A DNA stretch of 32,297 nt, from the IMG/VR virus record IMGVR_UViG_2896589216_000003. One strand, given 5' to 3'. A program made the position numbers and the translations under genes. Source of the stretch: a virus. Taxonomy: Duplodnaviria > Heunggongvirae > Uroviricota > Caudoviricetes. The notes under the pieces were generated by a model. It made no database searches and had not been told where the DNA came from. It worked only from the letters and a program-made list of their open reading frames with translations. This document shows positions 2,736-32,297 of this stretch, one piece after another (within the stretch, counting starts at the first letter, position 1; each line of letters begins with the position of its first letter).

Positions 2736-2790
2736 GGTGATGCTGCCAACTTACTGATTTAGTGTATGATGGTGTTTTTGAGGTGCTCCA

Positions 2791-3066
2791 GTGGCTTCTG
2801 TTTCTATCAGCTGTCCCTCCTGTTCAGCTACTGACGGGGTGGTGCGTAACGGCAAAAGCACTGCCGGACATCAGCGCTATCTCTGCTCTCACTGCCGTAA
2901 AACATGGCAACTGCAGTTCACTTACACCGCTTCTCAACCCGGTACGCACCAGAAAATTATTGATATGGCCATGAATGGCGTTGGATGCCGGGCAACTGCA
3001 CGCATTATGGGCGTTAGCCTCAACACGATTTTACGTCACTTAAAAAACTCAGGCCGCAGTCGGTAA
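2791..3066 (+). CDS. insA: IS1 InsA
   Basis: 91 aa, [42 protein letters not shown]... Confidence 0.95.
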
Positions 3067-3110
3067 CCTCGCGCATACAGCCGGGCAGTGACGTCATCGT
3101 CTGCGCGGAA

Positions 3111-4604
<1,494 letters not shown>

Positions 4605-4612
4605 CCACTTCA

Positions 4613-4783
4613 ACCGGCGATGGACTGTGTCTGCTGACCAAACGGCTGGAGCGCGGCCGCTTCGCCTGGCCGTCAGCCCGGGATGGCAAAGTGTTCCTCA
4701 CACCGGCACAGCTGGCGATGCTCCTTGAAGGTATCGACTGGCGGCAGCCTAAAAGACTGCTTACGTCCCTGACTATGTTGTAA
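4613..4783 (+). pseudogene. IS66-family tnpB, C-terminal fragment
   Basis: Begins directly at the IS911 right end with no start codon of its own. Confidence 0.7.
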
Positions 4784-4831
4784 GCCTCTTTATCCTGGTC
4801 GACGCTGAATGAGCCTGGTAATATACCCGGT

Positions 4832-6369
4832 ATGAGCAGCTCACTTCCTGACGATATCAATGCACTGAAACGTCTCCTTGCCGAACAGGAGGCGCTGAAC
4901 CGTGCCCTGCTGGAAAAGCTGAACGAGCGTGAACGCGAAATAGACCATCTGCAGGCACAGCTGGATAAGCTGCGCCGGATGAACTTCGGCAGCCGCTCCG
5001 AAAAAGTCTCCCGTCGTATCGCACAGATGGAAGCTGACCTGAAGGCACTTCAGAAAGAAAGTGATACCCTTACCGGTCGGGTTGACGACCCGGCCGTGCA
5101 GCGCCCGCTGCGTCAAACCCGCACCCGCAAACCGTTCCCCGAATCACTCCCCGCGATGAAAAACGGCTGCTGCCGGCAGCGTCATGCTGCCCGGAATGTG
5201 GAGGCTCACTGAGCTATCCGGGTGAGGATGCCGCCGAACAGCTGGAGTTGATGCGCAGCGTCTTCCGGGTTATCCGGACTGTACGTGAAAAGCATGCCTG
5301 TACTCAGTGCGATGCCATCGTGCAGGCCCCCGCGCCTTCACGGCCCATCGAGCGGGGTATCGCAGGACCGGGGCTGCTGGCCCGCGTGCTGATCTCAAAG
5401 TATGCAGAGCACACCCCGCTGTACCGCCAGTCTGAAATGTACGGCCGCCAGGGCGTGGAGCTGAGTCGTTCACTGCTGTCGGGCTGGGTGGATGCATGCT
5501 GCCGGCTACTGTCACCGCTGGAAGAAGCGCTTCAGGACTATGTGCTGACTGACGGTAAGCTCCATGCTGATGACACGCCTGTCCCGGTGCTGTTGCCAGG
5601 CAATAAGAAAACGAAGACCGGGCGGTTATGGACCTACGTTCGTGACGACCGTAACGCCGGGTCAACGCTGGCGCCGGCGGTGTGGTTCGCTTACAGCCCG
5701 GACAGAAAAGGCATCCATCCGCAGACCCATCTTGCGGGGTTCAGTGGTGTACTGCAGGCGGATGCATACGCCGGGTTCAACGAGCTGTACCGGGATGGCC
5801 GGATAACGGAAGCCGCCTGTTGGGCTCACGCCCGCCGTAAAATCCACGATGTGCACGTTCGCACCCCGTCAGCCCTGACGGAGGAAGCGCTGAAACGGAT
5901 CGGCGAACTGTACGCCATCGAGGCAGAGATAAGGGGAATGACGGCGGAGCAGCGCCTTGCCGAACGTCAGTTGAAAACGAAACCGCTGCTGAAATCCCTG
6001 GAAAGCTGGCTGCGTGAAAAGATGAAAACCCTGTCGCGACACTCAGAACTGGCGAAAGCGTTCGCATACGCCCTGAACCAGTGGCCGGCGCTGACGTACT
6101 ATGCAGATGATGGCTGGGCTGAGGCGGACAATAATATCGCTGAAAATGCGTTGCGGATGGTCAGTCTGGGCCGCAAAAACTACCTGTTCTTCGGTTCGGA
6201 TCATGGAGGAGAGCGGGGAGCGCTGCTGTACAGCCTGATCGGGACGTGCAAACTGAACGGAGTGGAGCCAGAAAGCTACCTCCGCTATGTACTTGACGTC
6301 ATAGCCGACTGGCCGATAAACCGGGTCGGCGAACTGCTCCCCTGGCGCGTAGCACTGCCGACTGAATAA
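4832..6369 (+). pseudogene. IS66-family transposase TnpC, frameshifted at the C-run 5149-5152
   Basis: ORF 4832..5212 ends ...[16 protein letters not shown]; the other frame continues [23 protein letters not shown]... straight into ORF 5248..6369. Confidence 0.8.
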
Positions 6370-6407
6370 CACATCCCCGTCAATACGGTTCTTGCTGCAC
6401 GCTTACC

Positions 6408-7304
6408 ATTGACGGGCGTGGTCTGGCTGGCGAGATCAGCAAGGAAACGGGTAAATCCCTGCGTGATAACGCTGAATACGTTAATCCCTGGGCGTCTCTG
6501 CATCGTGTTCAGCAATTCCGCTTCTTTGGTATTCCAGGGCGTCAGGCTTACCGTGAACTGCGGTTGTTGGCTGGTCAGGCGGCAAGGCAGCAGGGTGACA
6601 AAAAAGCAGGTGCGCCGGTACTGGATAACCCGCGCCTTGATGCCATCCTGGCTGCTGCTGATGCTGGCTGTTTTGCCACCTACATTATGAGGCAGGGCGG
6701 CGTGCTGGTTCCTCGCAAATATCACTTGATCAGAACCGCTTATGAAATCAATGAAGAGCCGACCGCCTATGGCGATCACGGTATTCGTATTTATGGCATC
6801 TGGTCACCCATTGCAGAAGGCAAGATCTGCACTCATGCAGTGAAGTGGAAAATGGTTCGTAAAGCCGTTGACGTTCAGGAGGCGGCAGCCGACCAGGGCG
6901 CTTGCGCCCCTTGGACTCGTGGCAATAACTGTCCCCTTGCTGAAAATTTGAACCAACAGGAGAAAGATAAATCAGCTGATGGGAACCCCAGAACGGACAT
7001 TACCAGCATGGATGACAAGGAGTTGCACGATTACCTGCACAGTATGAGCAAAAAAGAGCGCCGGGAACTGGCAGCAAGGTTACGCCTGGTGAAACCGAAA
7101 CGGCGTAAAGACTACAAACAGCGAATTACAGACCATCAGCGACTGCAGCTCGTGTATGAGCTGAAGTCCAGAGGATTTGATGGCAGCGAGAAAGAGGTCG
7201 ATTTACTCCTTCGCGGAGGCAGTATTCCGTCAGGAGCAGGCCTGCGTATCTTCTATCGGAACCAGCGTTTGCAGGAAGATGATCAGTGGCGGAACCTGTA
7301 TTAA
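6408..7304 (+). pseudogene. phage early-region protein, C-terminal fragment, 5'-truncated by the IS66-family element (by synteny probably the replication gene A-type protein)
   Basis: Reading frame is open from the IS end with no start codon; lies between the early region and the tum-like cassette. Identity not verified. Confidence 0.35.
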
Positions 7305-7387
7305 TTACGCGGGTTAACAATTCGTGCTCTTAATAATACCAGGCATATCAGGCTGATGAACGTAAAAAAACGTTTTACATCAGTAAG

Positions 7388-7396
7388 ATTATTATA
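7388..7396. repeat. 9-bp target-site duplication ATTATTATA, left copy, of IS1 copy 2
   Basis: Identical 9-mer at 8165-8173. Confidence 0.9.
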
Positions 7397-7411
7397 GGTA
7401 ATGACTCCAAC

Positions 7412-7915
7412 TCACTGATAGTGTTTTATGTTCAGATAATGCCCGATGACCTTGTCATGCAGCTCCACCGATTTTGAGAACGACAGTGACTTCCGTCCCA
7501 GCCTTGCCAGATGTTGTCTCAGATTCAGATTATGTCGCTCAATGCGCTGAGTGTAACGCTTGCTGATAACGTGCAGCTTTCCCTTCAGGCGTGATTCATA
7601 CAGCGGCCAGCCATCCGTCATCCATACCACGACCTCAAAGGCCGACAGCAGGCTCAGAAGACGCTCCAGTGTGGCCAGAGTGCGTTCACCGAAGACGTGC
7701 GCCACAACCGTCCTCCGTATCCTGTCATACGCGTAAAACAGCCAGCGCTGACGTGATTTAGCACCGACGTAGCCCCACTGTTCGTCCATTTCAGCGCAGA
7801 CAATCACATCACTGCCCGGTTGTATGCGCGAGGTTACCGACTGCGGCCTGAGTTTTTTAAGTGACGTAAAACCGTGTTGAGGCCAACGCCCATAATGCGT
7901 GCACTGGCGCGACAT
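7412..7915 (-). CDS. insB: IS1 InsB frame (variant isoform)
   Basis: Identical to the copy-3 InsB ORF. Confidence 0.9.
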
Positions 7916-8109
7916 CCGACGCCATTCATGGCCATATCAATGATTTTCTGGTGCGTACCGGGCTGAGAGGCGGTGTAAGTGAACTGTAGTTGCCATGTTT
8001 TACGGCAATGAGAGCAGAGATAGCGCTGATGTCCGGCAGTGCTTTTGCCGTTACGCACCACGCCTTCAGTAGCGGAGCAGGAAGGACATCTGATGGAAAT
8101 GGAAGCCAC
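7834..8109 (-). CDS. insA: IS1 InsA (variant isoform)
   Basis: [37 protein letters not shown]... Confidence 0.9.
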
Positions 8110-8164
8110 GCAAGCACCTTAAAATCACCATCATACACTAAATCAGTAAGTTGGCAGCATTACC

Positions 8165-8173
8165 ATTATTATA
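8165..8173. repeat. 9-bp target-site duplication ATTATTATA, right copy, of IS1 copy 2
   Basis: Matches 7388-7396. Confidence 0.9.
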
Positions 8174-8175
8174 TA

Positions 8176-8191
8176 CTGTAAATATAAACAG
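8176..8191 (+). promoter_or_regulatory. LexA (SOS) box CTGTAAATATAAACAG upstream of the tum/DinI-like cassette
   Basis: Matches CTGT-N8-ACAG with an AT-rich centre (20-mer TACTGTAAATATAAACAGTG); overlaps a -10-like TATAAA; 44 bp before the ATG at 8235. Confidence 0.6.
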
Positions 8192-8234
8192 TGGTTATGC
8201 ATGCAGTATTGCGTGTGGTGTCATAGGAGGAAAG

Positions 8235-8423
8235 ATGCAGGACTATTTTTTGGAGTCTTTGAAGCTCCAGCGCATTGATTTTTTTCTTAAGCTTGTAGCG
8301 GCTAGTGAGTGTAGTGATGAAGAGAAGGGGCTGGCTCTGCAGTGGGTTTCTGAATTGACTGATGAACTCATGGCAAAAATCAGAACCCACGAATACAACC
8401 GCTCAATGGATGTCATCAGCTGA
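8235..8423 (+). CDS. small protein, first gene of the SOS-controlled cassette (possible antirepressor N-part, Tum-like by position)
   Basis: ATG 8235 preceded by AGGAGG; 62 aa; the longer upstream start (8151) would overlap the IS1 end and LexA box. Confidence 0.5.
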   Translation: MQDYFLESLKLQRIDFFLKLVAASECSDEEKGLALQWVSELTDELMAKIRTHEYNRSMDVIS

Positions 8424-8433
8424 GGTGACTTTT

Positions 8434-8667
8434 ATGCGCATTGAAATAATGATCGATAAAGAGCAGAAGATTAGCCAGTCTACCCTGGACGCTCTTGAAT
8501 CCGAGCTTTACCGCAATCTGCGCCCTCTGTATCCCAAAACGGTAATTCGTATCCGCAAAGGTAGCTCTAACGGTGTGGAACTTACCGGATTGCAACTGGA
8601 CGAAGAAAGAAAACAAGTGATGAAAATTATGCAGAAGGTGTGGGAAGACGACAGCTGGCTGCATTAA
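8434..8667 (+). CDS. DinI-family protein (186 Tum C-domain-like)
   Basis: MRIEIMIDKEQKISQSTLDALESELYRNL...KQVMKIMQKVWEDDSW aligns with DinI (MRIEVTIAK...DALAGELSRR...ILQETWESADDW); RBS GAGG before ATG 8434. Confidence 0.75.
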   Translation: MRIEIMIDKEQKISQSTLDALESELYRNLRPLYPKTVIRIRKGSSNGVELTGLQLDEERKQVMKIMQKVWEDDSWLH

Positions 8668-8802
8668 GAAACGTTGCTGGCGTCTGAACTAGCTTCTGGC
8701 GTCAGCAAGGTTGAACAACGAGCCCTTGCGAGGCGTTAGCTCTGTAGTGCATGTCTATGCCGCATGAGATCGCATGATCGTTTGAGGATCGTTTTTGCTA
8801 AG

Positions 8803-8827
8803 GCCCGCCAGAACTGGCGGGCTTTTG
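8803..8827 (+). terminator. rho-independent terminator after the DinI-like gene
   Basis: GCCCGCCA-gaac-TGGCGGGC stem followed by TTTTG. Confidence 0.65.
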
Positions 8828-8889
8828 CGTAGATCATGCAGGTGCATGAAAACCACTACATAAAGCGGGCAGGCGTGGCGGGGATACGA

Positions 8890-8917
8890 TTGCGCGCTAG
8901 GTATAAGTGTGTAAAAT
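8890..8917 (+). promoter_or_regulatory. candidate sigma70 promoter for the ATPase/HNH module
   Basis: TTGCGC ... TG-adjacent TAAAAT about 40 bp upstream of ATG 8960; weak, by eye only. Confidence 0.25.
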
Positions 8918-8959
8918 AATTCCAAAATAAATCATCACTAATGAAGTGAGAGGGTAATA

Positions 8960-10609
8960 ATGTTAGTCAAGAAAAATAAAAATTATAGTTTATATTTTTT
9001 AATTACAAATAATCAACAGATATCTGATTCTGGTAATTATATAAAAATAGTCCCATCAAGAAGCGATTGGAATGATTTTGGATATTTGAGTAGAGTCGAA
9101 ATATCTATTTTTAATAAAAAAGAGTGTAAGGATATAATTTCACTGAATGGTTATATTGGTTTTTTGAATTCAGAGGAGGAACGAAATGGAAAAGCAGAAC
9201 TGATAAGGCGAGTGAAAAAAAAGGAAGAATCTAATTTAAAGGATGAGGGGTTTAATGATTATTTTGTCATGCTTCAGGATATGAATAATTATCGAAGACT
9301 AGTAAGATTTTTTGGGGTGAATGAATCCAAATATATATTAAATTTCATTAATGATGTTGTTTCTAAGAAAAGTGACGCTAGTGCAGAGAATTTGAGGAAA
9401 AAAGCAATCTCTTCTGATATCTTTAATAAATCTTTCATTAGAGAGTCTGAGTCGTATTTTACTTTCAAAAATGCAGGAACAGTTCTTTCCGGTATTCAAT
9501 ATGAGGAGTTGGGTAATTTATCACAGCACATCAAGATTAGCTATTCGAATAAAGTTAATGAAGAAGATGTATCTTATGTTTTTAATTTTGATCACGAGCA
9601 TGATTTACCAAAAAGAATTTCCATAATTATAGGCGAGAATGGTGTAGGAAAAAGCCAAACGCTTAGAGAAATCGCATTGGCTGCGATTAAAGGAAAGGAT
9701 AATTTGGTGGCTGTAGTTGATTCTAACGGTGTGAGCATTGAAGAACGAATTCAAATTAGTAGGCTCATTGCTTTTTCTCCAACAAATGAAAGTAAGTGTT
9801 CATTTCCAACCGATAAAAGAATAAAATCATTGATATGGTACAAAAGATTGACTTTAAATCGTGAATCAAAATCCAAATTAAACTTGAATGATTTAATAGT
9901 GCAACTAGCGAGGAGTAACGACGCTATCGGCTATAATCAAAGGTGGAATATATTTGTTGATGCACTGAGTGTTCTAAATAGTAACAACGATTTAGTAATC
10001 AAATGTGGCGGTGAAAATTCACCATTTGTTAAATTAAATGAGCTTAATTCTCGAGGCGAAGAATCTAGACTATCATTATATTCTGAAATTATTCTCTCTG
10101 GCGAGCCTTTGAGGCTTATTGAAAATAAATGTTACCCTTTGAGTAGTGGGGAAATATCGTTTATTAAGTTTTGTGTACAAGTTTGTTTGTATATTGAGAA
10201 TGGGACTCTTCTATTAATAGATGAGCCAGAAACACATCTCCATCCTTCATTTATTAATAAATTTATGGCATTGCTTGATAATTTATTAGAAAAGACAGGC
10301 TCTTCAGCTATCATAGCAACGCATTCGGTTTATCTTGTTCGGGAGGTTTTTAAGGAGCAAGTGACAATACTCAGAAGACGAGATGATGGGGTAATTGTTA
10401 GCGAAAAACCGAGATTGAGTACTTTTGGGGCGAATATAGGAAATATCTCATATTTTGTTTTCGGTGAGAGTGAACCAACTCAAATTTTAAATAAAGTAAA
10501 AAACAATATAATTGCAAAGAATATGTCTTGGGATGATGTTGAATCTAAATATAGCGAGGACTTATCACTTAATGTATTAACTGCGTTGAGAAATGAAATG
10601 GGCAATTGA
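8960..10609 (+). CDS. ABC/OLD-type (AAA_21-like) ATPase with about 215-aa N-terminal domain of unknown function; candidate defence protein
   Basis: 549 aa; Walker A GENGVGKS (aa 225-232), signature-like LSSGE (394-398), Walker B/D-loop LLLIDEPETHLHP (417-429), H-loop ATHS (453-456); RBS GAGAGGG; strongly AT-rich. Confidence 0.8.
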   Translation: MLVKKNKNYSLYFLITNNQQISDSGNYIKIVPSRSDWNDFGYLSRVEISIFNKKECKDIISLNGYIGFLNSEEERNGKAELIRRVKKKEESNLKDEGFNDYFVMLQDMNNYRRLVRFFGVNESKYILNFINDVVSKKSDASAENLRKKAISSDIFNKSFIRESESYFTFKNAGTVLSGIQYEELGNLSQHIKISYSNKVNEEDVSYVFNFDHEHDLPKRISIIIGENGVGKSQTLREIALAAIKGKDNLVAVVDSNGVSIEERIQISRLIAFSPTNESKCSFPTDKRIKSLIWYKRLTLNRESKSKLNLNDLIVQLARSNDAIGYNQRWNIFVDALSVLNSNNDLVIKCGGENSPFVKLNELNSRGEESRLSLYSEIILSGEPLRLIENKCYPLSSGEISFIKFCVQVCLYIENGTLLLIDEPETHLHPSFINKFMALLDNLLEKTGSSAIIATHSVYLVREVFKEQVTILRRRDDGVIVSEKPRLSTFGANIGNISYFVFGESEPTQILNKVKNNIIAKNMSWDDVESKYSEDLSLNVLTALRNEMGN

Positions 10610-11474
10610 AATGAATAAATTAAAAAGACCTGTTTTTAAAGATTATTCTGCATTTAAAAAACTATCTGCAAATAAGAGATTAAAACATCATTCTGTTCTG
10701 AATGGACAGGATACATTTATACTTAATGCATATAGATCGTACATAAAGAATAAAGGGTATCTTAATGTCAATTCTTGTGGCGTATTGAGTAACAATATTG
10801 CTGAAGCTTTGAGATATTATTATAACAATCCCGCAAAGTGTTTATCTATAATTGATGATATAAGAGCAGCTAATTCTAACTCTCTATGTCCAATGTGTGG
10901 TTCAATGCATAGCGGGACTTTGGATCATGTTTTACCCAAGGAAAACTATCCAGAATTTTCTTTATTCACTAAGAATTTGGTTCCTGCTTGCAAATGTAAT
11001 ACTTTCAAAAGTACTACTATAGCTAATTCTGCAGGCCATCGGATGCTGCATCCATATTTTGATAATATATTAAAACAAAGATTAATATGTGCTAATTTTT
11101 CTAAATTAGGGCGAACACCTACAATTGATGTAAAAATCATAATTGACCCAATGTCACCAGAATATAACAATGTTAAGTATCATCTTGATAATGTTGTTAT
11201 CAAGAATAATATTAAGGGGTATTTGTCTGAACAATGGGAGTCGTTTTACTTATATCCTGAGCTTGTTATTAGAGGACTGAATAAGAGTCTTTCTACTTAT
11301 AGCGATGTATATGAGTTGTTGACTCGCGAGTTGTTGCTGTTGGATGAAAAACATAAAGGTAAAAATAATTGGAATTCGGTTTTTGTAGCTGGGTTAATTC
11401 GACCTGATGTGATTAGGTGGATACTCTGTGAATTACATTTAGGTAACAGAAGTCCAGACGGTCGTCTCATATGA
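10593..11474 (+). CDS. HNH / His-Me-finger nuclease-like protein, partner of the ATPase
   Basis: CPMC-x8-DH-x20-CKCN ... H-x3-H (aa 99-153); overlaps the upstream gene by 17 nt (alternative in-frame ATG at 10611); same AT-rich composition. Confidence 0.7.
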   Translation: MKWAIEMNKLKRPVFKDYSAFKKLSANKRLKHHSVLNGQDTFILNAYRSYIKNKGYLNVNSCGVLSNNIAEALRYYYNNPAKCLSIIDDIRAANSNSLCPMCGSMHSGTLDHVLPKENYPEFSLFTKNLVPACKCNTFKSTTIANSAGHRMLHPYFDNILKQRLICANFSKLGRTPTIDVKIIIDPMSPEYNNVKYHLDNVVIKNNIKGYLSEQWESFYLYPELVIRGLNKSLSTYSDVYELLTRELLLLDEKHKGKNNWNSVFVAGLIRPDVIRWILCELHLGNRSPDGRLI

Positions 11475-11581: not shown

Positions 11582-12615
11582 TTAAGTAGCTAGTTTATAA
11601 CTATCAAATTTAACAATGTTCTCACTTACCAATTTATTTATTTCCATCATTCTTTTTTGTAACGGTATTAACTCGTTACGTACAAACACCAGGCTCGCCT
11701 TCTCCACATCCCCAAACCCCCGACATTATTAGGCATAATCCCCATCATTTGCGGTGGCACACGATGCGCCGCCATCATGTCATCCCGGCTCACGTTCTTG
11801 ATGTTCAGAAACTCATCCTTCGCCGCGACTTCTGACAACGGGATGATCTGAAGCCCGTCCTTTTTGCCGTTAGGCGAGTACATAAACAGATTGCGGAAGT
11901 TACCTGGTCCTTTGGCGCTTTTCATCGCATTGCGGAGGTTGTTCACATCCTCCTGGTTTTGCGCGGCATCGGTCATGTACATGATGAAGCCTGCATGACT
12001 GCCGTTAATGTAATACTATCGGCGGAACAGCGTGGCGGACTCGTTGAGCAGGGCTGACGGAATGGCAGAAAGGTAACCTGGCAGGCCGTAGATCTCTTGG
12101 TTGATGTCCGGTTCCATCAGATGAAAGATGCTTCCTTTCGTGAACTGATACGGCTGCGTGGTCATGCCGTATTGCACAAACCAGTAGGTATCCAGGTCTA
12201 ATCCGCGTCGGGTGTATTTTGCCAGAGCAGGCTCAAGAGCGATGACCTCTCCGAACCGGTTTGTGCGTTTCTCCAGGTAAGCGTTACCAAATACCAGATA
12301 ATCCTGCACAAAACGTGAAAAAGCCTGCTGGCTGAGCAGCGGGTGAGGGATGTAGGTACTGATCAGAATGTTGCATTTCACCGCAATTGGTGAACTGTGA
12401 TGCACGGCGGCGCGGAAGGTGCGCGCCAGTCCGTCAAAACTCACTGGCGGCTCATACCAGCGATCTGTCTGTACGCATTCCACATAGTCCAGTAGTTCAC
12501 GGCGGTCCAGAACCGGAACGGGATCGCCGAAGCTGAATGCTTCGGCTGAAGTCTGGTTTTTATGCTGGGTCTGTTTCGTCGCCGCAGCGCGGTTCTTCTT
12601 ACTCTTTCCCATCAA
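11582..12615 (-). pseudogene. Q: portal protein (P2 gpQ-like) with in-frame TAG (12016-12018) and a 1-bp frameshift near 11714-11716
   Basis: N-part ...LNESATLFRR then TAG, continuing in the same frame (LYINGSHAGFIMY...); C-terminal ...PNNVGGLGMWRRR* shifts frame, the other frame gives GDVEKASLVFVRNELIPLQ... to stop at 11582. Confidence 0.8.
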
Positions 12616-17178: not shown

Positions 17179-17625
17179 ATGAAGTTTGTTGCGCCAGAAC
17201 AGGCACCGGAACAGGCGGAAATCATTAGAAATACGCCGTTCTGGCCTGATGTGGACCTGTCGGAGTTTCGCAGTGTCATGCGCACTGACGGCACGGTGAC
17301 GCAGCCGCGTTTAAAGTAGGTTGCACTGTCGGCAATTTCGGAGGTTAACGCAGAGCTGTATGAATTTCGCAGACGCCAGCAGATGCTGGGGTATGCGTCG
17401 GAACAGCTGGACGGGAAAAGTGAGCGCATTCAGCACTATTTCAACGCGGTTTACTGCTGGGCTCGCGCCATGCTCAACGAACGTTTCCAGGACTATGACG
17501 CCACGGCATCCGGTGCGAAGCGGGGCGAAGAACTGGCGGAAGCAAGCGGTGATTTGTGGCGTGACGCCCGCTGGGCCATCAGCCGGGTGCAGGACGCGCC
17601 GCACTGCACAGTGGAGCTTATCTGA
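17179..17625 (+). pseudogene. L: head completion/stabilisation protein (P2 gpL-like) with in-frame TAG at 17317-17319
   Basis: ATG 17179 with AGGAG RBS; ...VTQPRLK then TAG then VALSAISEVNAELYEF... in the same frame, ending ...RDARWAISRVQDAPHCTVELI. Confidence 0.75.
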
Positions 17626-19344: not shown

Positions 19345-19477
19345 CGGTGATCTGAATGCGTTGCTGGATGAAACGGAGGCCGCCTGGGCGGTCTGTGCAG
19401 ACAAAGTGGACATGATTATTGCGTGTCAGGAGCGAAATAGTGAACAAACCACAATCCCTGCGCCACGCCCTCAATAA
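19187..19477 (+). CDS. lysC: LysC, Rz1-like outer-membrane lipoprotein spanin, embedded in the +1 frame of lysB
   Basis: Lipobox LLTLSGC; overlaps the lysB 3' half. Confidence 0.65.
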   Translation: MRTRIYVAGLILLCLLTLSGCGNVRHSPEVQLTVSGCPRVTPCRLEQAAPRTNGDLNALLDETEAAWAVCADKVDMIIACQERNSEQTTIPAPRPQ

Positions 19478-19871
19478 AGCAGTGCCTTATGTCCGTAATA
19501 ACCCGGACAAACTGCATCTGTTTGTGGATAACGGTTCGCTGGTTGCCTCCGGGGCTAGCTCCATGTCATGGGAGTACCGCTACACCCTGAACGTGGTGAT
19601 TGAAGATTTCAGCGGCGACCAGAATCTGCTGATGGCCCCGGTTTTGCTGTGGCTGCGGGATAACCAGCCCGATGCGATCAATAACCCGGCGTTACGGGAA
19701 AAGCTATTCACCTTTGAGGTGGATATTCTGCGCAACGATGTCTGTGATATCAGCCTTAACCTGCAACTGACGGAGCGTGTGCTGGTCAGCACTGACGGCA
19801 GTGTGTCGAACGTTGAAGCGGTAGCGGAACCTGATGAACCTGAAGAAATGTGGACGGTGAAACGTGGCTGA
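19419..19871 (+). CDS. R: tail completion protein, P2 gpR-like (true start may be slightly downstream)
   Basis: ...LHLFVDNGSL...YRYTLNVVIEDFSGD...LLWLRDNQPD... Confidence 0.75.
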   Translation: MRVRSEIVNKPQSLRHALNKAVPYVRNNPDKLHLFVDNGSLVASGASSMSWEYRYTLNVVIEDFSGDQNLLMAPVLLWLRDNQPDAINNPALREKLFTFEVDILRNDVCDISLNLQLTERVLVSTDGSVSNVEAVAEPDEPEEMWTVKRG

Positions 19872-20265
19872 ATTGCAGAAGGTGGACGACTGGCTGAGTG
19901 CATTATTGGCGAATCTGGAGCCAGCCGCAAGAAGCCGCATGATGCGCCAGCTGGCGCAGGAACTGCGCCGGACACAGCAGCAGAATATCAGGATGCAGCG
20001 CAATCCAGATGGCAGCAGTTATGAGCCGCGCAGGGTAACAGCACGCAGCAAAAAGGGGCGCATCAAACGTCAGATGTTTACAAAGCTGCGCACCACAAAA
20101 TACCTGAAAACTGCAGCCAGCGCCGATTCTGCCAGCGTACAGTTTGAAGGTAGGGTGCAGCGCATTGCCCGTATTCACCATTACGGCTTGAGTGATCGCG
20201 TCAGTCGAAAAGGTATTTATACCATCTATGCGAAAAGGCAGTTATTAGGTTTTAATGTCCGGTAA
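19864..20265 (+). pseudogene. S: tail completion protein, P2 gpS-like, 3'-truncated by IS1 copy 3
   Basis: Stop codon TAA (20263-20265) is formed by IS1 terminal bases; ...YAKRQLLGFNVR*. Confidence 0.7.
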
Positions 20266-20315
20266 TGCTGCCAACTTACTGATTTAGTGTATGATGGTGA
20301 TTTTAAGGTGCTTGC

Positions 20316-20591
20316 GTGGCTTCCATTTCCATCAGATGTCCTTCCTGCTCCGCTATTGAAGGCGTGGTGCGTAACGGCAAAAGAACTGCCGGACATCAGC
20401 GCTATCTCTGCTCTCATTGCCGTAAAACATGGCAACTACAGTTCACTTACACCGCCTCTCAGCCCGGTACGCACCAGAAAATCATTGATATGGCCATGAA
20501 TGGCGTCGGATGTCGCGCCAGTGCACGCATTATGGGCGTTGGCCTCAACACGGTTTTACGTCACTTAAAAAACTCAGGCCGCAGTCGGTAA
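20316..20591 (+). CDS. insA: IS1 InsA (variant isoform)
   Basis: [37 protein letters not shown]... Confidence 0.9.
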
Positions 20592-21013
20592 CCTCGCGCA
20601 TACAACCGGGCAGTGATGTGATTGTCTGCGCTGAAATGGACGAACAGTGGGGCTACGTCGGTGCTAAATCACGTCAGCGCTGGCTGTTTTACGCGTATGA
20701 CAGGATACGGAGGACGGTTGTGGCGCACGTCTTCGGTGAACGCACTCTGGCCACACTGGAGCGTCTTCTGAGCCTGCTGTCGGCCTTTGAGGTCGTGGTA
20801 TGGATGACGGATGGCTGGCCGCTGTATGAATCACGCCTGAAGGGAAAGCTGCACGTTATCAGCAAGCGTTACACTCAGCGCATTGAGCGACATAATCTGA
20901 ATCTGAGACAACATCTGGCAAGGCTGGGACGGAAGTCACTGTCGTTCTCAAAATCGGTGGAGCTGCATGACAAGGTCATCGGGCATTATCTGAACATAAA
21001 ACACTATCAGTAA
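20510..21013 (+). CDS. insB: IS1 InsB frame (variant isoform)
   Basis: 167-aa ORF identical to that of copy 2. Confidence 0.9.
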
Positions 21014-21023
21014 GTTGGCAGCA

Positions 21024-21560
21024 TTACCATGCAGCCCTCACAATATAGTTAAAAGCGACATTTCGTGGGCGTGTTTCATTCGCACCTGCAGGTTTAGTCG
21101 TTGCCGCAACAACACCACCCTCTGTAATAGCCGGGTTGGGAATTGGGTAATTATCGAAGTCAATGGCCGGAGACAGGGGCGTGATTTGTTTTAAAATCGT
21201 GGTGCCTGTAAAACTTTCCAGAGTCTGGTCGTTAGTTCGTGAAGTCCAGATTCCCCAATAGTGGTTATGACTGACAATCGCACCGTCCTGAAGCGTTAAT
21301 AATCCCCTTCCGTTATCCACTCCACGTCCGTCATCCCAGCCACGAATAAACTCACCGCGTAAATCAGGCAATTTATTTGTCGGGTAAGCCTTTGCCAGTT
21401 CCGGGTATTCTTCAGCAGAAAAAGCCGCACCATTGCATTTCAGCCAGCCTGTCGGCGGAGTGGCTGAAGGCCACGGAACAGGCACACCAACAGGTAATGC
21501 AGAGCCTTCTCCCAAACCAACGTTTAAGAAAATGCAGAGATAATGGCTAACTGGCATCAT
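21024..21560 (-). pseudogene. tail-fibre variable C-terminal cassette (inverted-orientation segment of a Gin/Pin-type shufflon), truncated by IS1 copy 3
   Basis: ...PVGVPVPWPSATPPTGWLKCNGAAFSAEEYPELAKAYPTNKLPDLRGEFIRGWDDGRGVDNGRG... conserved tail-fibre junction motif; ORF begins at the crossover-like site and runs into the IS1 end. Confidence 0.65.
21507..21532. promoter_or_regulatory. gix/hix/cix-like 26-bp imperfect palindrome: candidate invertase crossover site
   Basis: TTCTCCCAAACCAACGTTTAAGAAAA resembles gix (TTATCCAAAACCTCGGTTTACAGGAA); sits at the 5' end of the tail-fibre cassette next to the invertase gene. Confidence 0.5.
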
Positions 21561-21587
21561 CCCAGGTTTTTATTCAGGGGATTGATC

Positions 21588-22154
21588 ATGCTTATTGGCT
21601 ATGTACGCGTGTCAACAAATGACCAGAACACCGATTTGCAACGTAATGCACTGAACTGCGCGGGATGTGAGCGGATTTTTGAGGATAAAATCAGTGGCAC
21701 TAAGCCCGACAGACCGGGGCTTAAAAAACTGCTCAGGACACTATCGGCAGGAGACACGCTGGTTGTCTGGAAGCTGGACAGACTGGGACGCAGTATGCGG
21801 CATCTTGTTACGCTGATAGAAGAGTTGCGCCAGCGTGGTGTGAATTTCCGAAGCCTGACTGACAGTATTGATACCAGTACCCCAATGGGCCGTTTCTTTT
21901 TTCACGTCATGGGGGCTCTGGCTGAAATGGAACGTGAACTGATAGTTGAACGTACCAGAGCAGGGCTGGCTGCAGCTCGTGCCAAAGGCAGAGTAGGTGG
22001 ACTCCGTCCTAAGTTGACCACCGAACAGTGGGCACAGATTGGACGTTTACTCGAGGCCGGAGAATCAAGACAGCGTATTGCACTGATTTTTGATGTGGGC
22101 GTTTCTACCATTTATAGAAAATTTCCGGCGAATGAGAGCAATGAATCGCCCTGA
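21588..22154 (+). CDS. serine DNA invertase (Gin/Hin/Pin/Cin family)
   Basis: MLIGYVRVSTNDQNTDLQRNAL...LVVWKLDRLGRSM...SLTDSIDTSTPMGRFFFHVMGALAEMERELI... near-identical in pattern to Gin. Confidence 0.9.
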   Translation: MLIGYVRVSTNDQNTDLQRNALNCAGCERIFEDKISGTKPDRPGLKKLLRTLSAGDTLVVWKLDRLGRSMRHLVTLIEELRQRGVNFRSLTDSIDTSTPMGRFFFHVMGALAEMERELIVERTRAGLAAARAKGRVGGLRPKLTTEQWAQIGRLLEAGESRQRIALIFDVGVSTIYRKFPANESNESP

Positions 22155-22296: not shown

Positions 22297-23469
22297 ATGG
22301 CTCAGGATTACCACCACGGGGTGCGCGTTGTTGAAGTCAACGAAGGCACCCGATCCATTACCACGGTGAGCACCGCCATCGTGGGTATGGTCTGCACGGG
22401 CGATGATGCCGATGCAAAAATGTTTCCTCTTAATAAACCTGTGCTGATCACTGATGTGCTGACCGCCAGCGGTAAAGCGGGTGAGTCTGGCACGCTGGCC
22501 CGTTCGCTGGATGCCATCGCTGACCAGGCAAAACCCGTGACCGTTGTTGTGCGTGTGCCGCAGGGTGAAACGGAAGAAGAAACCACAACCAATATCATTG
22601 GCGCAGTGACCGCCGAGGGTAAAAAAACAGGTATGAAAGCCCTGTTATCTGCCCAGTCACAGCTCGGCGTTAAACCGCGCATTCTCGGCGTGCCAGGTCA
22701 CGACACGAAGGCGGTAGCTACTGAGTTGCTGAGCGTGGCGCAAAGCCTGCGTGGATTTGCTTACCTGTCAGCGTATGGTTGCAAGACGGTGCAGGAAGCA
22801 ATCACTTACCGTGAAAACTTCAGTCAGCGTGAAGGAATGCTGATCTGGCCCGACTTTACTGGCTGGGACACGGTGCTGAATGCCGAAGCAACGGCTTATG
22901 CCACCGCCCGTGCGCTCGGTCTGCGCGCTAAAATTGATGAGCAGACCGGATGGCACAAAAGCCTGTCCAACGTGGGCGTGAACGGTGTCACCGGAATTTC
23001 TGCTGATGTGTTCTGGGATCTGCAGAACCCGGCAACCGATGCAGGTCTGCTTAACCAGAACGATATCACCACGCTTATCCGCAAAGACGGTTTCCGCTTC
23101 TGGGGTTCCCGCTGTCTGAGCGATGATCCGCTCTTTGCCTTCGAAAACTACACCCGCACGGCGCAGGTGCTGATGGACACGATGGCAGAAGCGCACATGT
23201 GGGCGGTGGACAAACCGCTGAACCCGTCGCTGGCCCGCGACATTATCGAAGGTATCCGCGCCAAAATGCGTAGCCTGGTCAGTCAGGGCTATCTCATTGG
23301 TGGTGATTGCTGGCTGGACGAGTCGGTGAACGATAAAGACACGCTGAAAGCCGGGAAACTCACCATCGATTACGACTACACGCCAGTGCCGCCACTTGAA
23401 AACCTGATGCTGCGTCAGCGCATCACCGATCAGTACCTGGTGAATTTCTCCAGCCAGGTCAGCGCGTAA
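22297..23469 (+). CDS. FI: contractile tail sheath protein, P2 gpFI-like
   Basis: 390 aa; RBS AGGAGG; [17 protein letters not shown]... Confidence 0.9.
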
Positions 23470-24477: not shown

Positions 24478-27400
24478 ATGAGTGACAATAACCTGCGTCT
24501 GCAGGTGATTCTTAATGCGGTTGACAAACTCACCCGCCCATTTCGATCCGCGCAGGCCAGTTCAAGAGAACTGGCTGCTGCTGTCAAAAAATCCCGCGAT
24601 GCAATAAAGCAGCTTGATCAGGCCGGGAGCAGTCTGGACAGCTTCCGAAAGCTGCAGGCAGAAAATCAGAAATTAGGCGACAGGCTGAACTATGCCCGCC
24701 AGCGTGCAAATTTGCTCAGTCAGGAACTGGGAGCGATGGGGCCGCCTTCGCAACGTCAGGTTGTTGCTCTGGGCCGTCAACGGCTGGCTGTTCAGCGCCT
24801 GGAAGAACGCCAGAAAAAGCTGCAGCAGCAGACGGCGCTTGTGCGTGCAGAACTTTATCGTGCTGGTATTTCAGCTAATGATGGCGCCAGTGCGACGGCC
24901 CGCATTACCCGTGAAACGATGCGTTATAACAGGCAGCTTTCTGAGCAGGAAGCGAGGTTACGACGTGTCGGGGAGCAACAGCGAAAAATGCACGCCGCCC
25001 GGGGGCTTACGCCAGGCGTCTTGAGGTAAGGGATCGTATTGCAGGTGCCGGAGCCACCACCACGGCTGCAGGGCTGGCAATGGGCGCACCAGTGATGGCG
25101 GCAGTAAAAAGCTATACCAGCATGGAAGATGCCATGAAAGGTGTGGCAAAGCAGGTCAATGGTCTGCGTGACGATAATGGCAACCGCACTGCGCGTTTTT
25201 ACGAAATGCAGGGTGCCATCAAGGCTGCCAGCGAACAGTTGCCGATGGAAAACGGTGCTGTGGACTTCGCCGCACTGGTTGAAGGTGGTGCGCGCATGAA
25301 CGTCGCAAACCCTGACGACAGCTGGGAAGACCAGAAACGTGACCTGCTGGCCTTCGCCAGCACGGCGGCAAAGGCGGCAACAGCCTTTGAACTGCCAGCG
25401 GATGAACTGTCAGAAAGTCTGGGGAAAATCGCCCAGCTCTACAAAATCCCTACCCGCAATATTGAGCAGCTCGGTGATGCGCTGAACTATCTGGATGATA
25501 ACGCCATGTCGAAAGGGGCGGACATCATTGATGTCATGCAACGCCTGGGCGGTGTGGCTGACCGTCTGGATTATCGTAAAGCGGCGGCGCTGGGTTCCAC
25601 CTTCCTGACACTCGGCGCTGCGCCTGAGGTTGCAGCCAGTGCAGCAAACGCGATGGTGCGTGAATTGTCCATTGCCACCATGCAAAGCAAGAGTTTCTTT
25701 GAAGGGATGAATCTGCTGAAACTCAATCCAGAAGTGATTGAAAAGCAGATGACGAAGGATGCGATGGGAACTATCCAGCGGGTGCTGGAGAAGGTGAATG
25801 CGCTGCCACAGGATAAGCGCCTGTCTGCCATGACCATGTTGTTTGGTAAAGAGTTTGGCGATGACGCAGCGAAACTGGCAAACAACCTGCCGGAACTTCA
25901 GCGCCAGTTAAAACTGACTGCGGGCAATGATGCGCTCGGTTCCATGCAGAAAGAATCCGACATCAACAAGGATTCACTTTCTGCTCAGTGGTTGCTGGTC
26001 AAAACCGGAGCACAGAACACCTTCAGCAGCCTGGGGGAAACGCTGCGCCAGCCGCTGATGGATATTCTGTACACGGTGAAAAGCGTCACGGGGGCGTTGC
26101 GTCGCTGGGTGGAAGCTAACCCGGAACTGACGGGCACTCTGATGAAAGTAGCCGCTGTGGTAGCTGCCGTTACCGTGGGCCTCGGCACCTTAGAGGTGGC
26201 GCTGGCTGCAGTGCTGGGGCCGCTGGCAGTCATCCGTCTGGGATTCTCTGTGCTGGGTATCAAAACGTTACCTTCCGTTACGGCAGCAGTAACCCGAACC
26301 AGCAACGCGTTGTCCTGGCTGGCTGGCGCACCACTGGCACTGCTGCGACGCGGGCTTGCTTCATCGGGCAACGCTGCAGGTTTACTTACTGCGCCGTTGT
26401 CGTCTTTGCGCCGCACGGCATCACTGACGGGAAATGTCCTGAAAACTGTAGCAGGTGCGCCGGTTGCACTTTTGCGGGTCTGGATTATCCGGTTTACGTG
26501 CGGTTGCTGTGATGTTTATGAATCCACTGGCGGTACTACGCGGCGGACTGGCTGCCACAGGCACGGTGCTGCGTATGCTCGCATCCGGTCCACTGGCGAT
26601 GCTGCGCGTTGCCCTGTATGCCGTCTCTGGTCTGTTAGGTGCTCTGCTCAGTCTGATAGGTCTTGTGGTTACTGCACTGGCGGGTGTGGCGCTGGTTGTC
26701 TGGAAATACTGGCAGCCCATCACCACATTTCTCGGTGGCGTGGTGGAAGGATTCAAAGCGGCGGCAGGTCCTGTCAGTGCCGCGTTCGAACCGCTTAAGC
26801 CTGTGTTCCAGTGGATTGGCGACAAAGTACAGGCGCTGTGGGGCTGGTTTACTGATCTGCTGACGCCCGTTAAGTCGACCTCTGCCGAACTGCAGAGTGC
26901 AGCGGCAATGGGGCGACGATTCGGGGAGGCTCTGGCGGAAGGGCTGAATATGGTCATGCATCCGCTGGACTCCCTGAAATCCGGCGTTTCCTGGTTGCTG
27001 GAGAAACTTGGCATTGTCAGTAAAGAGGCCGCAAAGGCGAAACTGCCGGAAAGCGTGACGCGTCAGCAACCTGCGACGGTGAATGCAGACGGTAAAGTGA
27101 TGATGCCATCGGGTGGTTTTCCGTCATGGGGATATGGCTTTGCGGGGATGTATGACAGCGGCGGGTATATCCCGCGCGGGCAGTTTGGCATCGTCGGTGA
27201 AAACGGGCCGGAAATTGTTAACGGCCCGGCAAATGTGACCAGCCGGAGAAATACAGCTGCACTGGCTGCCGTTGTTGCCGGAATGATGGGTGTTGCTGCT
27301 ACGCCAGCAGAGCTTCCACCGTTGCACCCTTTGGCACTTCCCGCGAAAGGCGGTGAAGCGATGGTGAGTCGTGCAGCCACTGTGCCGCCCGTTCAACGGA

Positions 27401-27555
27401 TTGAGGCACCGATGCAGATCATCATTCAAACGCAGCCAGGACAAAGTGCGCAGGATATTGCGCGGGAGGTGGCCCGCCAGCTTGATGAACGTGAACGCAG
27501 GCTGAAGGCAAAAGCCAGGAGTAACTACAGCGATCAGGGGGGATACGACGCATGA
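24478..27555 (+). pseudogene. T: tail tape measure protein (P2 gpT-like) with two frame discontinuities (about 24999-25005 and about 26483-26511); genuine lesions or sequencing errors
   Basis: Three ORFs (24478..25029, 25080..26798, 26455..27555) tile the gene in frames 1/0/1; first break is in a G5 run; ORF2 tail reads as out-of-frame nonsense. Confidence 0.7.
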
Positions 27556-29678: not shown

Positions 29679-31364
29679 TTATCCTAATCCTGGCCATACC
29701 ATGACGATGATTGTCCCTGCCAGCGTCAGCAGGACGTTGGCGATTGCGTAGGTGCCCGCATAGCCCAGCGCAGGGATGTTACTGCGAGCTGTATCACTGA
29801 TGATCTCCATTGCCGGCGCGCAGGTGCGTGCGCCCATCATTGCGCCGAACAACAGTGCGCGGTTCATTCGCAATACATAAGCACCGAACAAGAAACAGAT
29901 AACCACGGGCACAAGACTGACAATTAATCCGGCAATCAACATCTGACCGCCAATCGCGGCCAGGCCGTTATTAATACCGCTACCGGCGCTCAGACCAACG
30001 CCTGCCATAAACACCATCAAGCCGAACTCTTTCACCATGCTTAATGCACCTTGCGGAATGTAACCGAAGGTCGGGTGGTTAGCACGCATAAAGCCCAGCA
30101 TAATTCCGGCGAATAACAACCCGGCAGCGTTCCCCATGCCGAAACTGAATGTGCTGAACTGGAAGGTGATCATCCCGATCATCAGCCCAATAACAAAGAA
30201 GGCGCAAAATGCCAGCAGGTCAGTGACCTGGCTGTGAATCGAGATAAAGCCGATGCGATCGGCAATGGTTTTTACGCGACGGGCATCACCGCTGACTTGT
30301 AAAACGTCACCTTTGTTAAGCACGACGTTGTCATCTATCGGCATCTCAATCTGGCTACGAATGACGCGGTTAAGGAAGCAACCGTGATCGGTCAACTTCA
30401 GTTGTGCGAGACGTTTACCTACAGCGTTATGGTTTTTAACGACCACTTCTTCAGTGACGATACGCATGTCGAGAAGGTCACGATCGAAAACTTCTTTACC
30501 GTTACGGAAGCTGGGATCGAGTCGGGCATGGGCGTCGGGATAGCCTACCAACGCTATTTCATCGCCCATTTGTAGCACGGCATCACCGTCTGGATTTGCC
30601 AGAATCCCGTTACGTCGAATACGTTCAATGTAGCAGCCGGTTTGTCGATAAATACCCAGTTCACGCAGATTTTTGCCGTCGGTCCAGGCCACCAGCTCCG
30701 GGCCGACGCGATAGGCGCGGATCACCGGTAAATAAACCTTACGGTTGGCATCAGTGTCCAGGCCACGTTCGCGGGCGATTTGCTGGGCGCTGGTCTGTAA
30801 GTCCTGATGCTGCAATTTCGGCAAGTAACGCGCACCAACAATCAAACTCACCAGACCGATTAAATAGGTTAAGGCATACCCGAGGCTCAGATTATCCAGT
30901 GCCAGTGAGAGCTGCCTGCTTTCCATGCCGGAATGACGCAGTGTATCGCCAGCACCGACCAGAACCGGTGTCGACGTCATAGAGCCTGCTAACATACCGG
31001 CCGTCAGGCCAATATCCCAGCCAAACAGCTTACCTAACCCTAAGGCGATCACCAGCGCACTGCCAACCATCACCAGTGCTAACATTAGGTAATTTTTCCC
31101 ATCGCGAAAAAAAATGGAAAAAAAGTTCGGTCCGGCTTCGACCCCGACGCAGAAAATAAACAGCATAAAGCCAAGATTAAGCGCATCGGTGTTAATGCTG
31201 AAATGTTGTTGGCCTAATAACAGCGATACGACTAAAACGCCAATGGAATTACCCAGTTGGATCGAACCAAGTCGTAACTTTCCGAGACATAGCCCAAGCG
31301 CGAGGACCACAAATAATAACAGAATGTAATTCCCATTTAACAATTCGGCGACGTTTATATTCAC
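29679..31364 (-). CDS. ybjL: putative transport protein YbjL (AAE-family transporter with TrkA-C domains); host gene
   Basis: 561 aa, [33 protein letters not shown]...; recognised as enterobacterial YbjL. Confidence 0.9.
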
Positions 31365-31633: not shown

Positions 31634-32010
31634 GTGAAACATAAACAACGTTGGGCAGGGGCAATCTGCTGTTTTGTCCTCTTCATTGTGGTGTGCCTTT
31701 TTCTGGCGACGTACATGAAAGGCGCTTTTCGGGCTGCCGGGCATCCTGAAATCGGCTTGCTGTTTTTCATTCTTCCTGGAGCAGTTGCCAGTTTCTTTTC
31801 ACAGCGTAGAGAAGTCCTGAAACCTCTATTTGGCGCAATGCTGGCGGCACCCTGTTCAATGCTCATTATGCGGCTGTTTTTTTCACCGACGCGCTCATTC
31901 TGGCAAGAGCTGGCATGGTTACTAAGCGCGGTGTTCTGGTGTGCGCTGGGGCACTGTGTTTCTTATTTATCAGTAGTTTGTTTAAACCACAGCACAGAAA
32001 AAATCAGTAA
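31634..32010 (+). pseudogene. ybjM: inner-membrane protein YbjM with apparent 1-bp deletion in the G-run 31948-31951 (run-on ORF to 32167 otherwise)
   Basis: After ...FWCALG the alternative frame reads ALCFLFISSLFKPQHRKNQ* (hydrophobic, stops at 32008-32010 just before a hairpin); the annotated frame runs 128 bp into convergent grxA. Confidence 0.55.
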
Positions 32011-32029
32011 AGCCCTCAACGCGAGGGCT
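32011..32029 (-). terminator. hairpin between convergent ybjM and grxA (likely grxA terminator, possibly bidirectional)
   Basis: AGCCCTC-aacgc-GAGGGCT, followed on the minus strand by a T-rich tract. Confidence 0.5.
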
Positions 32030-32039
32030 TGTCAGACGA

Positions 32040-32297
32040 TCAGGCGTCCAGATTTTCTTTCACCCATGCAGCAAAATCGGTATAGCCGCCGATATGTTGC
32101 TGATCGACAAAAATCTGCGGCACGGTTTCTACGGGTTTACCTGCCTTTTGTGGTAGATCTTCTTTAGTGATCCCTTCCGCACGAATATCTACATACTGAT
32201 ACTGAAAATCATCGCGTTCATTGCTCAATTTCTCAGCCAGATCTTTTGCACGCACACAGTAAGGGCAACCCGAACGACCAAAAATAACGGTTTGCAT
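32040..32297 (-). CDS. grxA: glutaredoxin 1
   Basis: 85 aa, MQTVIFGRSGCPYCVRAKDLAEKL..., CPYC active site; start codon is at the window end. Confidence 0.9.
   Translation of the reverse strand: MQTVIFGRSGCPYCVRAKDLAEKLSNERDDFQYQYVDIRAEGITKEDLPQKAGKPVETVPQIFVDQQHIGGYTDFAAWVKENLDA

Follow-up and report, generated by a model that had tools for sequence, protein, structure and literature searches.

A probable relic of a P2-like invertible tail-fibre segment at an IS1-associated deletion in a Shigella prophage

The locus described here occupies positions 21024-22154 of a 32,297-nt stretch of DNA (hereafter the window), and comprises four adjoining features: a tail-fibre cassette on the minus strand (21024-21506), a 26-bp crossover site (21507-21532), a short spacer (21533-21587), and a serine DNA invertase gene on the plus strand (21588-22154). 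On its left it runs into a complete IS1 element (20261-21028); on its right lies the tail sheath gene FI (22297-23469, plus strand), recognizable by its Pfam sheath domains. FI is the usual right neighbour of the invertase, and the same order is found in the P2-like prophages of Escherichia coli ATCC 8739 and Z226-7 and in phage pro483.

The cassette is a silent, alternative C-terminal end of a tail fibre, of the Sv' receptor-binding type with a tail-collar domain, held in the ‘off’ orientation and pointing away from the late operon. In annotation it appears as a 178-aa minus-strand ORF (21024-21560; Pfam Collar, 9e-16) that does run into IS1, as the original prediction had it: the IS1 terminal repeat supplies both the final Trp codon and the stop (21024-21026). 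The same prediction described the cassette as truncated, and this does not hold, since all 177 codons of the silent ATCC 8739 cassette are present and collinear and IS1 begins at the stop codon. Within the former segment, the protein differs from that of ATCC 8739 by one amino acid; the cassette's identity to its silent counterpart in pro483 is 98.7%. Nor does the ORF begin at the palindrome, as had been supposed; its ATG (21558-21560) is a fortuitous one in the spacer, 26 nt outside the crossover site, and genuine coding starts at the inner half-site, which encodes GLGE. Residues 1-9 of the annotated ORF (MMPVSHYLC), encoded in the spacer outside the segment and different from the relatives, are not real fibre sequence. 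A promoter scan, which is weak evidence on this point, recovered no minus-strand promoter-like site upstream of the cassette ATG.

The crossover site is a gix/hix-like dyad, TTCTCCCAAACC-AA-CGTTTAAGAAAA. Of its 26 positions, 17 agree with Mu gixR, and E. coli Z226-7 has exactly the same sequence at its invertase-proximal site. The site stands 55 bp from the invertase start, compared with 51 bp in Mu. No other position in the window resembles it at three or fewer mismatches, where none is expected by chance. A half-site scan of the window, scoring eight conserved positions per half-site against shuffles, recovered it as the sole 16/16 match; the runners-up, at 12/16, lie at chance level, with about one such match expected. 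The likeness to known crossover sites is thus genuine and not due to chance. The mismatch search, the half-site scan with shuffles, and an inverted-repeat search returned no second site above chance in the 32-kb window, so that the predicted single gix-like site is confirmed, and no second, inverted site bounds an intact segment nearby. The counterpart site in ATCC 8739 pairs with an inverted partner 1.8 kb away.

The invertase gene encodes a full-length, 188-aa protein of the Gin/Hin family (Pfam Resolvase, 3.7e-53; HTH_7, 1.5e-13). Homologues support the start at ATG 21588, and length and start agree with the annotations in ATCC 8739 and Z226-7; the 203-aa ORF from 21543 on which the locus was first described is an upstream extension of this gene. 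The protein aligns with the Gin structure 3UJ3 (PDB; 2.5e-91, with Ser9 aligned) and shows 74% identity to Mu Gin across 184 residues; NCBIfam holds no equivalog model for it. It retains Ser9, the DRLGRS motif (64-69), the E-helix FFHVMGALAEMERELIVERT, and the HTH. Of the 24 nucleotide differences from the ATCC 8739 gene, 20 are synonymous, a ratio that reads as a signature of past purifying selection. Against the gene of the closest relative, Z226-7, which corresponds to WP_000905013, the sole difference in 567 nt is at position 22003, where CGC has become CTC; any Fis-dependent recombinational enhancer that the 5' part of the gene may hold in the relatives would consequently be kept here. 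The substitution changes codon 139 (22002-22004, plus strand), which is CGC (Arg) in all close relatives, to Leu, and falls in the minor-groove arm motif GGR. The description of the invertase as intact with all hallmark motifs therefore stands for its length, Ser9, DRLGRS, and HTH, but not for this invariant DNA-binding arginine.

Conservation at this position is strict among close relatives and high beyond them. Arginine is found in 120 of the 120 closest cluster representatives, in every other member examined of the invertase's own 90% cluster, and in 125 of 150 diverse 50%-identity representatives; the exceptions are mostly truncated proteins, and a few full-length distant serine recombinases carry Ala or Pro. 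Position 139 aligns with Gin R139 and with gamma-delta resolvase R142, and corresponds to Hin R140 by ungapped offset to the 1HCR peptide. The Gly-Arg arm that precedes the HTH in these enzymes (Hin G139-R140, Gin G138-R139) is not conserved here, where it reads G138-L139. The Gly-Arg pair enters the minor groove of the site, and is critical for binding by the native DNA-binding domain. In the literature searched, neither Hin R140 nor Gin R139 had been mutated directly. What bears on the question is a study of zinc-finger fusions in which the Gin arm was scanned with alanine; the native DNA-binding domain is replaced there, and the R139-equivalent is not among the residues whose loss reduced recombination more than 100-fold (PMC3985619). 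It follows that the arginine is not needed for catalysis itself, and the scan weakens the case for inactivation by R139L because the residue was not flagged there. On the strength of its position and conservation, R139L is nonetheless predicted most likely to weaken or abolish binding to the site. Inactivation of the enzyme as a whole is a likely, though by no means assured, consequence; alignment thus reveals a change that is arguably, and by prediction, inactivating. An arginine (Arg140) directly follows L139 and might partly stand in for the lost residue. The invertase ORF is open and identical in all carriers examined, with neighbouring genes broken in individual strains; this could hint at retention, but the lineage is too young to tell.

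The IS1 element at the left edge of the locus (plus strand) is 768 bp long, with perfect 23-bp terminal inverted repeats, Pfam matches to InsA and IS1 transposase, and both insA (20316-20591) and the insB frame (20510-21013). Its flanks, TTAATGTCC and ATGCAGCCC, lack the 9-bp target duplication. The window has two more copies of IS1, and each of these shows a perfect one (CACGGTGGC around the copy at 2736-3503 and ATTATTATA around the copy at 7397-8164). The junction is therefore the scar of a deletion or recombination and not of a simple insertion. On its far side, the element cuts gpS (19864-20265, plus strand), the right-hand neighbour of gpR (19419-19871) and a tail completion and virion morphogenesis gene whose remaining product covers positions 2-132 of the 148-position Phage_tail_S profile in Pfam. 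About 16 C-terminal residues are lost relative to the intact 148-aa homologue of Z226-7, and the last codon and stop are taken from the IS1 end.

The missing DNA amounts to approximately 5.0 kb relative to Z226-7 and 6.6 kb relative to ATCC 8739. It held the end of S followed by V, W, J, and I, the whole of H (with the distal crossover site and the expressed cassette), and both chaperone genes. Neither blastn nor tblastn recovered homologues of V, W, J, I, H, tfa, or tfaE in the window. Together with the absent target duplication, this supports the original prediction that the partner site and the constant region of the fibre were lost with the IS1 deletion. The last 47 nt of the surviving gpS (20214-20260) differ from those of the E. 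coli relatives, with a related peptide (IYTIYAKRQLLGFN compared with PEVRYAERRLLGVN); the S allele of the Shigella prophage was therefore a mosaic before the IS1 event. Two candidate routes to the present junction were also considered and rejected. E. coli strain 64, which has an IS1 beside gpS, does not represent the ancestral state; its element inserted independently, in the intergenic stretch between S and V. An origin by inversion between the two oppositely oriented IS1 copies was rejected on comparison of the flanks in both orientations, as the other copies keep their own target duplications.

The window as a whole is a decayed P2-like (Peduovirus) prophage of the kind seen in Shigella assemblies, adjoined by the gene ybjL (29679-31364). 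It carries terminase, scaffold, capsid, and lysis genes, together with R, S, FI, FII, E, T, U, D, and ogr. Pfam matches and gene tables recover the P2-like late order P-O-N-M-L-X-holin-lysozyme-lysB/C-R-S, followed after the gap by FI-FII-E-T-U-D-ogr; this order is collinear with ATCC 8739 and Z226-7 except for the missing V-W-J-I-H-G.

Decay extends well beyond the fibre locus. The integrase gene (1-1209) now consists of two ORFs, an N-terminal one with Int_N only and a short C-terminal one, the portal gene (12016-12615) is reduced to a 199-aa ORF without a Pfam match plus a fragment, gpL is split in two (17179-17625), and the tape-measure gene lies in three ORFs (24478-27555). Which further genes are broken varies among Shigella assemblies; the sheath, D, and terminase genes are examples. 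The early region (2736-8164) has been replaced by a nest of insertion sequences: the IS1 copy at 2736-3503 (a 91% variant), an IS3-family transposase (3765-4604), IS66-family genes (4832-6369), and the inverted IS1 copy at 7397-8164, which is 99% identical to the element at the deletion junction. The 12-kb interval between these last two copies could invert by homologous recombination. Adjoining the portal remnant is a two-gene cargo (8960-11474), both ORFs of which look intact: one encodes a 549-aa AAA_21 ATPase (PADLOC PDC-M01A, 3e-55) and the other a 293-aa protein without a Pfam match (PDC-M01B, 1e-33). By these matches the pair is a candidate anti-phage defence system in a P2-type accessory hotspot. 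At the other end of the window, the ybjM ORF (31634-32167) has a called length of 177 aa in the window, CP026823, and CP026805, against 125 aa in other carrier assemblies, from which an extended reading frame in the window's sub-lineage follows.

The carriers of this locus are consistently Shigella. The exact chimeric cassette protein is present in public records as “MULTISPECIES: phage tail protein [Shigella]”, and the exact invertase sequence under the names Shigella dysenteriae or Shigella. The gpS-IS1-cassette junction and the invertase are identical in every context examined, all of them Shigella-named assemblies; the same junction recurs in at least 24 contigs from independent assemblies, several complete chromosomes among them, and was absent from the complete E. 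coli genomes searched. Complete chromosomes that carry the locus include CP026823, CP026805, CP026840, CP026842, and CP026828; aligned over 20.5 kb, the window and CP026823 show 5 mismatches. Because the junction is common to all carriers, including complete chromosomes, it is a fixed feature of a Shigella lineage, as is the prophage next to ybjL, and not an artefact of assembly.

The intact arrangement can be read from the E. coli relatives and pro483, in which the full switch has the order S-V-W-J-I-H-tfa-(tfa'-Sv')-invertase-FI. In ATCC 8739, Z226-7, and pro483, S may be followed by cargo, H is followed by tfa, and tfaE and a 177-aa “phage tail protein” lie on the opposite strand ahead of the recombinase and FI. 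The ATCC 8739 prophage (NC_010468) adjoins ybjL, as does that of the window, and carries two inverted 25-26-bp sites 1831 nt apart, one inside H and the other beside the recombinase. When the segment is flipped in silico between the site centres, an in-frame, 513-aa H-Sv' fusion results, reading ...LTYLGLGE and then GSALPVGVPVPWPS... across the junction. A second ATCC 8739 assembly, NZ_CP033020, matches this flipped junction with 100% identity across 550 nt, and 380 E. coli genomes match it with a coverage of at least 80%; the switch of this P2-like group therefore inverts in nature. Inversions of tail fibres in P2-like prophages have also been detected experimentally, in EPEC E2348/69 (PMC4272514). 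The 1.85-kb segment (7624-9504 of the NC_010468 locus) lies in opposite orientations in the two ATCC 8739 assemblies, which is direct evidence that the P2-like switch is active.

These relatives provide the closest comparison for the locus. ATCC 8739 (at ybjL), pro483, and EPEC E2348/69 represent the same phage group, ATCC 8739 also shares the ybjL neighbour, and the right-hand neighbours FI-FII-E-T-U-D-ogr are common to them and the window. The window, however, keeps only the invertase-proximal third of the switch. It has lost the distal site together with the constant region of H, the second cassette, the two chaperone genes, and the genes for the baseplate, and its invertase carries R139L.

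Tail-fibre inversion modules with a dedicated invertase are also known from the Mu G, P1 C, and e14 P segments, served by Gin, Cin, and Pin respectively. The resemblance to these that was first proposed for the locus is upheld, the window representing the invertase-proximal end of such a module. The layout is alike in having an opposite-strand silent cassette, a 26-bp site, a spacer of about 50 bp, and the invertase; it differs in phage type, P2-like here, in the single site, and in the presence of L139 where Gin has R139. Judged against the Gin/Hin/Cin/Pin systems more generally, the window has the small serine recombinase with an N-terminal catalytic domain and a C-terminal HTH, but in place of two inverted 26-bp sites bounding a segment it has only 21507-21532, and in place of a constant 5' fibre part with alternative 3' cassettes and chaperones it has one cassette. 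The locus descends from these Fis-dependent switches, in their P2-like form, but as it stands it lacks features that define a functional member of the group. The label “shufflon”, also applied to it originally, is a misnomer. Shufflons are multi-site systems of the R64 type, with more than two sfx repeats, in which the tyrosine recombinase Rci shuffles the C-termini of pilV; the window has a serine invertase, one site, and a tail-collar fibre end.

The decay of phage inversion modules through IS elements is an established theme in Shigella. The Shigella invertase genes pinF (defective), pinB, and pinD are reported to belong to decayed inversion systems with IS elements and point mutations, and their origin is said to be e14-like or Mu-like, as against P2-like here. 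Orphan invertases in defective prophages, without an adjoining functional segment, likewise have counterparts in PinQ and PinR (of Qin and Rac, acting on e14) and in Fin of Fels-2, which reportedly inverts the Salmonella H segment. Experiments have shown those enzymes to be active, whereas the activity of the window enzyme is a matter of prediction, and a DNA-binding residue that is otherwise conserved is substituted in it. For PinQ, inversion of the e14 P segment in trans is documented (PMC12529663); a host-level effect of the PinQ type is a block of phage adsorption.

We consider the most probable reading, at roughly 80%, to be that the locus is what is left of the right end of an invertible tail-fibre segment in a P2-like prophage, decayed by an IS1-associated deletion and by R139L, and without present function. 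Where the switch is intact, the 3' end of H falls within a 1.85-kb segment framed by two inverted 26-bp sites; this segment holds two fibre ends to choose between, and a chaperone gene accompanies each. Flipping of the segment by the serine invertase next to it switches host range. In the window, an IS1-associated deletion of about 5-6.6 kb has taken the end of S and, with it, V, W, J, and I; the constant part of H went as well, as did the distal site, the expressed cassette, and the two chaperone genes. It left one crossover site, a complete but unexpressed alternative cassette, and the invertase gene; R139L most likely weakens or abolishes the binding of the leftover invertase to its site. 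With one site and no constant region, there can be no switching in cis and the cassette has no fusion partner. Because the cassette has neither a shaft to join nor a chaperone, and the prophage has no baseplate, the locus should not work. The anatomy of the locus, the deletion, the single site, the substitution with its conservation, and the natural flipping of relatives are observed directly; we infer the loss of function from the absences, and the impairment of the enzyme from the substituted residue. The system is of an already known kind, and its fate is one of ordinary genome decay.

The principal alternative is that the orphan invertase is still active, and works in trans on sites in other prophages of the same genome. 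The full-length ORF, with Ser9, DRLGRS, and the HTH intact, is compatible with such a role, as is the fact that the gene is one nucleotide removed from a relative whose family flips in nature, and Fin of Fels-2, as noted above, would be one precedent. Against this, the one nucleotide in question replaces the invariant minor-groove arginine, all carriers share R139L, with no active allele seen alongside the IS1 junction, and the 32-kb window offers no second site. PinQ provides a further precedent (PMC12529663), but on balance we regard action in trans as unlikely, if deserving of some weight. A more specific version of the idea would be that the L139 invertase and its single site have been kept in Shigella because the enzyme still recombines, perhaps with a relaxed or altered site preference conferred by the shifted Arg140, and drives inversions in other prophages or at secondary chromosomal sites. 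We think this quite improbable; if it were true, an effect at the level of the host, such as a block of phage adsorption of the PinQ type, would be possible.

Least probable of all, to the point of being nearly negligible, is that the junction is an artefact of assembly or annotation, or that the missing genes were merely moved by inversion between IS1 copies and not deleted. Two inverted copies, near-identical and 12 kb apart, could in principle recombine in this way. The recurrence of the junction across independent assemblies and complete chromosomes, in the numbers given above, speaks against an artefact, however, and the perfect target duplication of the inverted copy at 7397-8164 means that no flanks have been exchanged; moreover, none of the missing genes is found elsewhere in the window.

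If the locus is the relic that we favour, two annotations in these Shigella genomes, a “phage tail protein” of 178 aa and a “recombinase family protein”, would mark remnants of a dead host-range switch, and would not indicate working phase variation. This matters little beyond annotation. The Shigella allele is, at the same time, a natural R139L variant that lies one nucleotide from its Z226-7 relative, and could offer a ready-made test of this residue in a native invertase.
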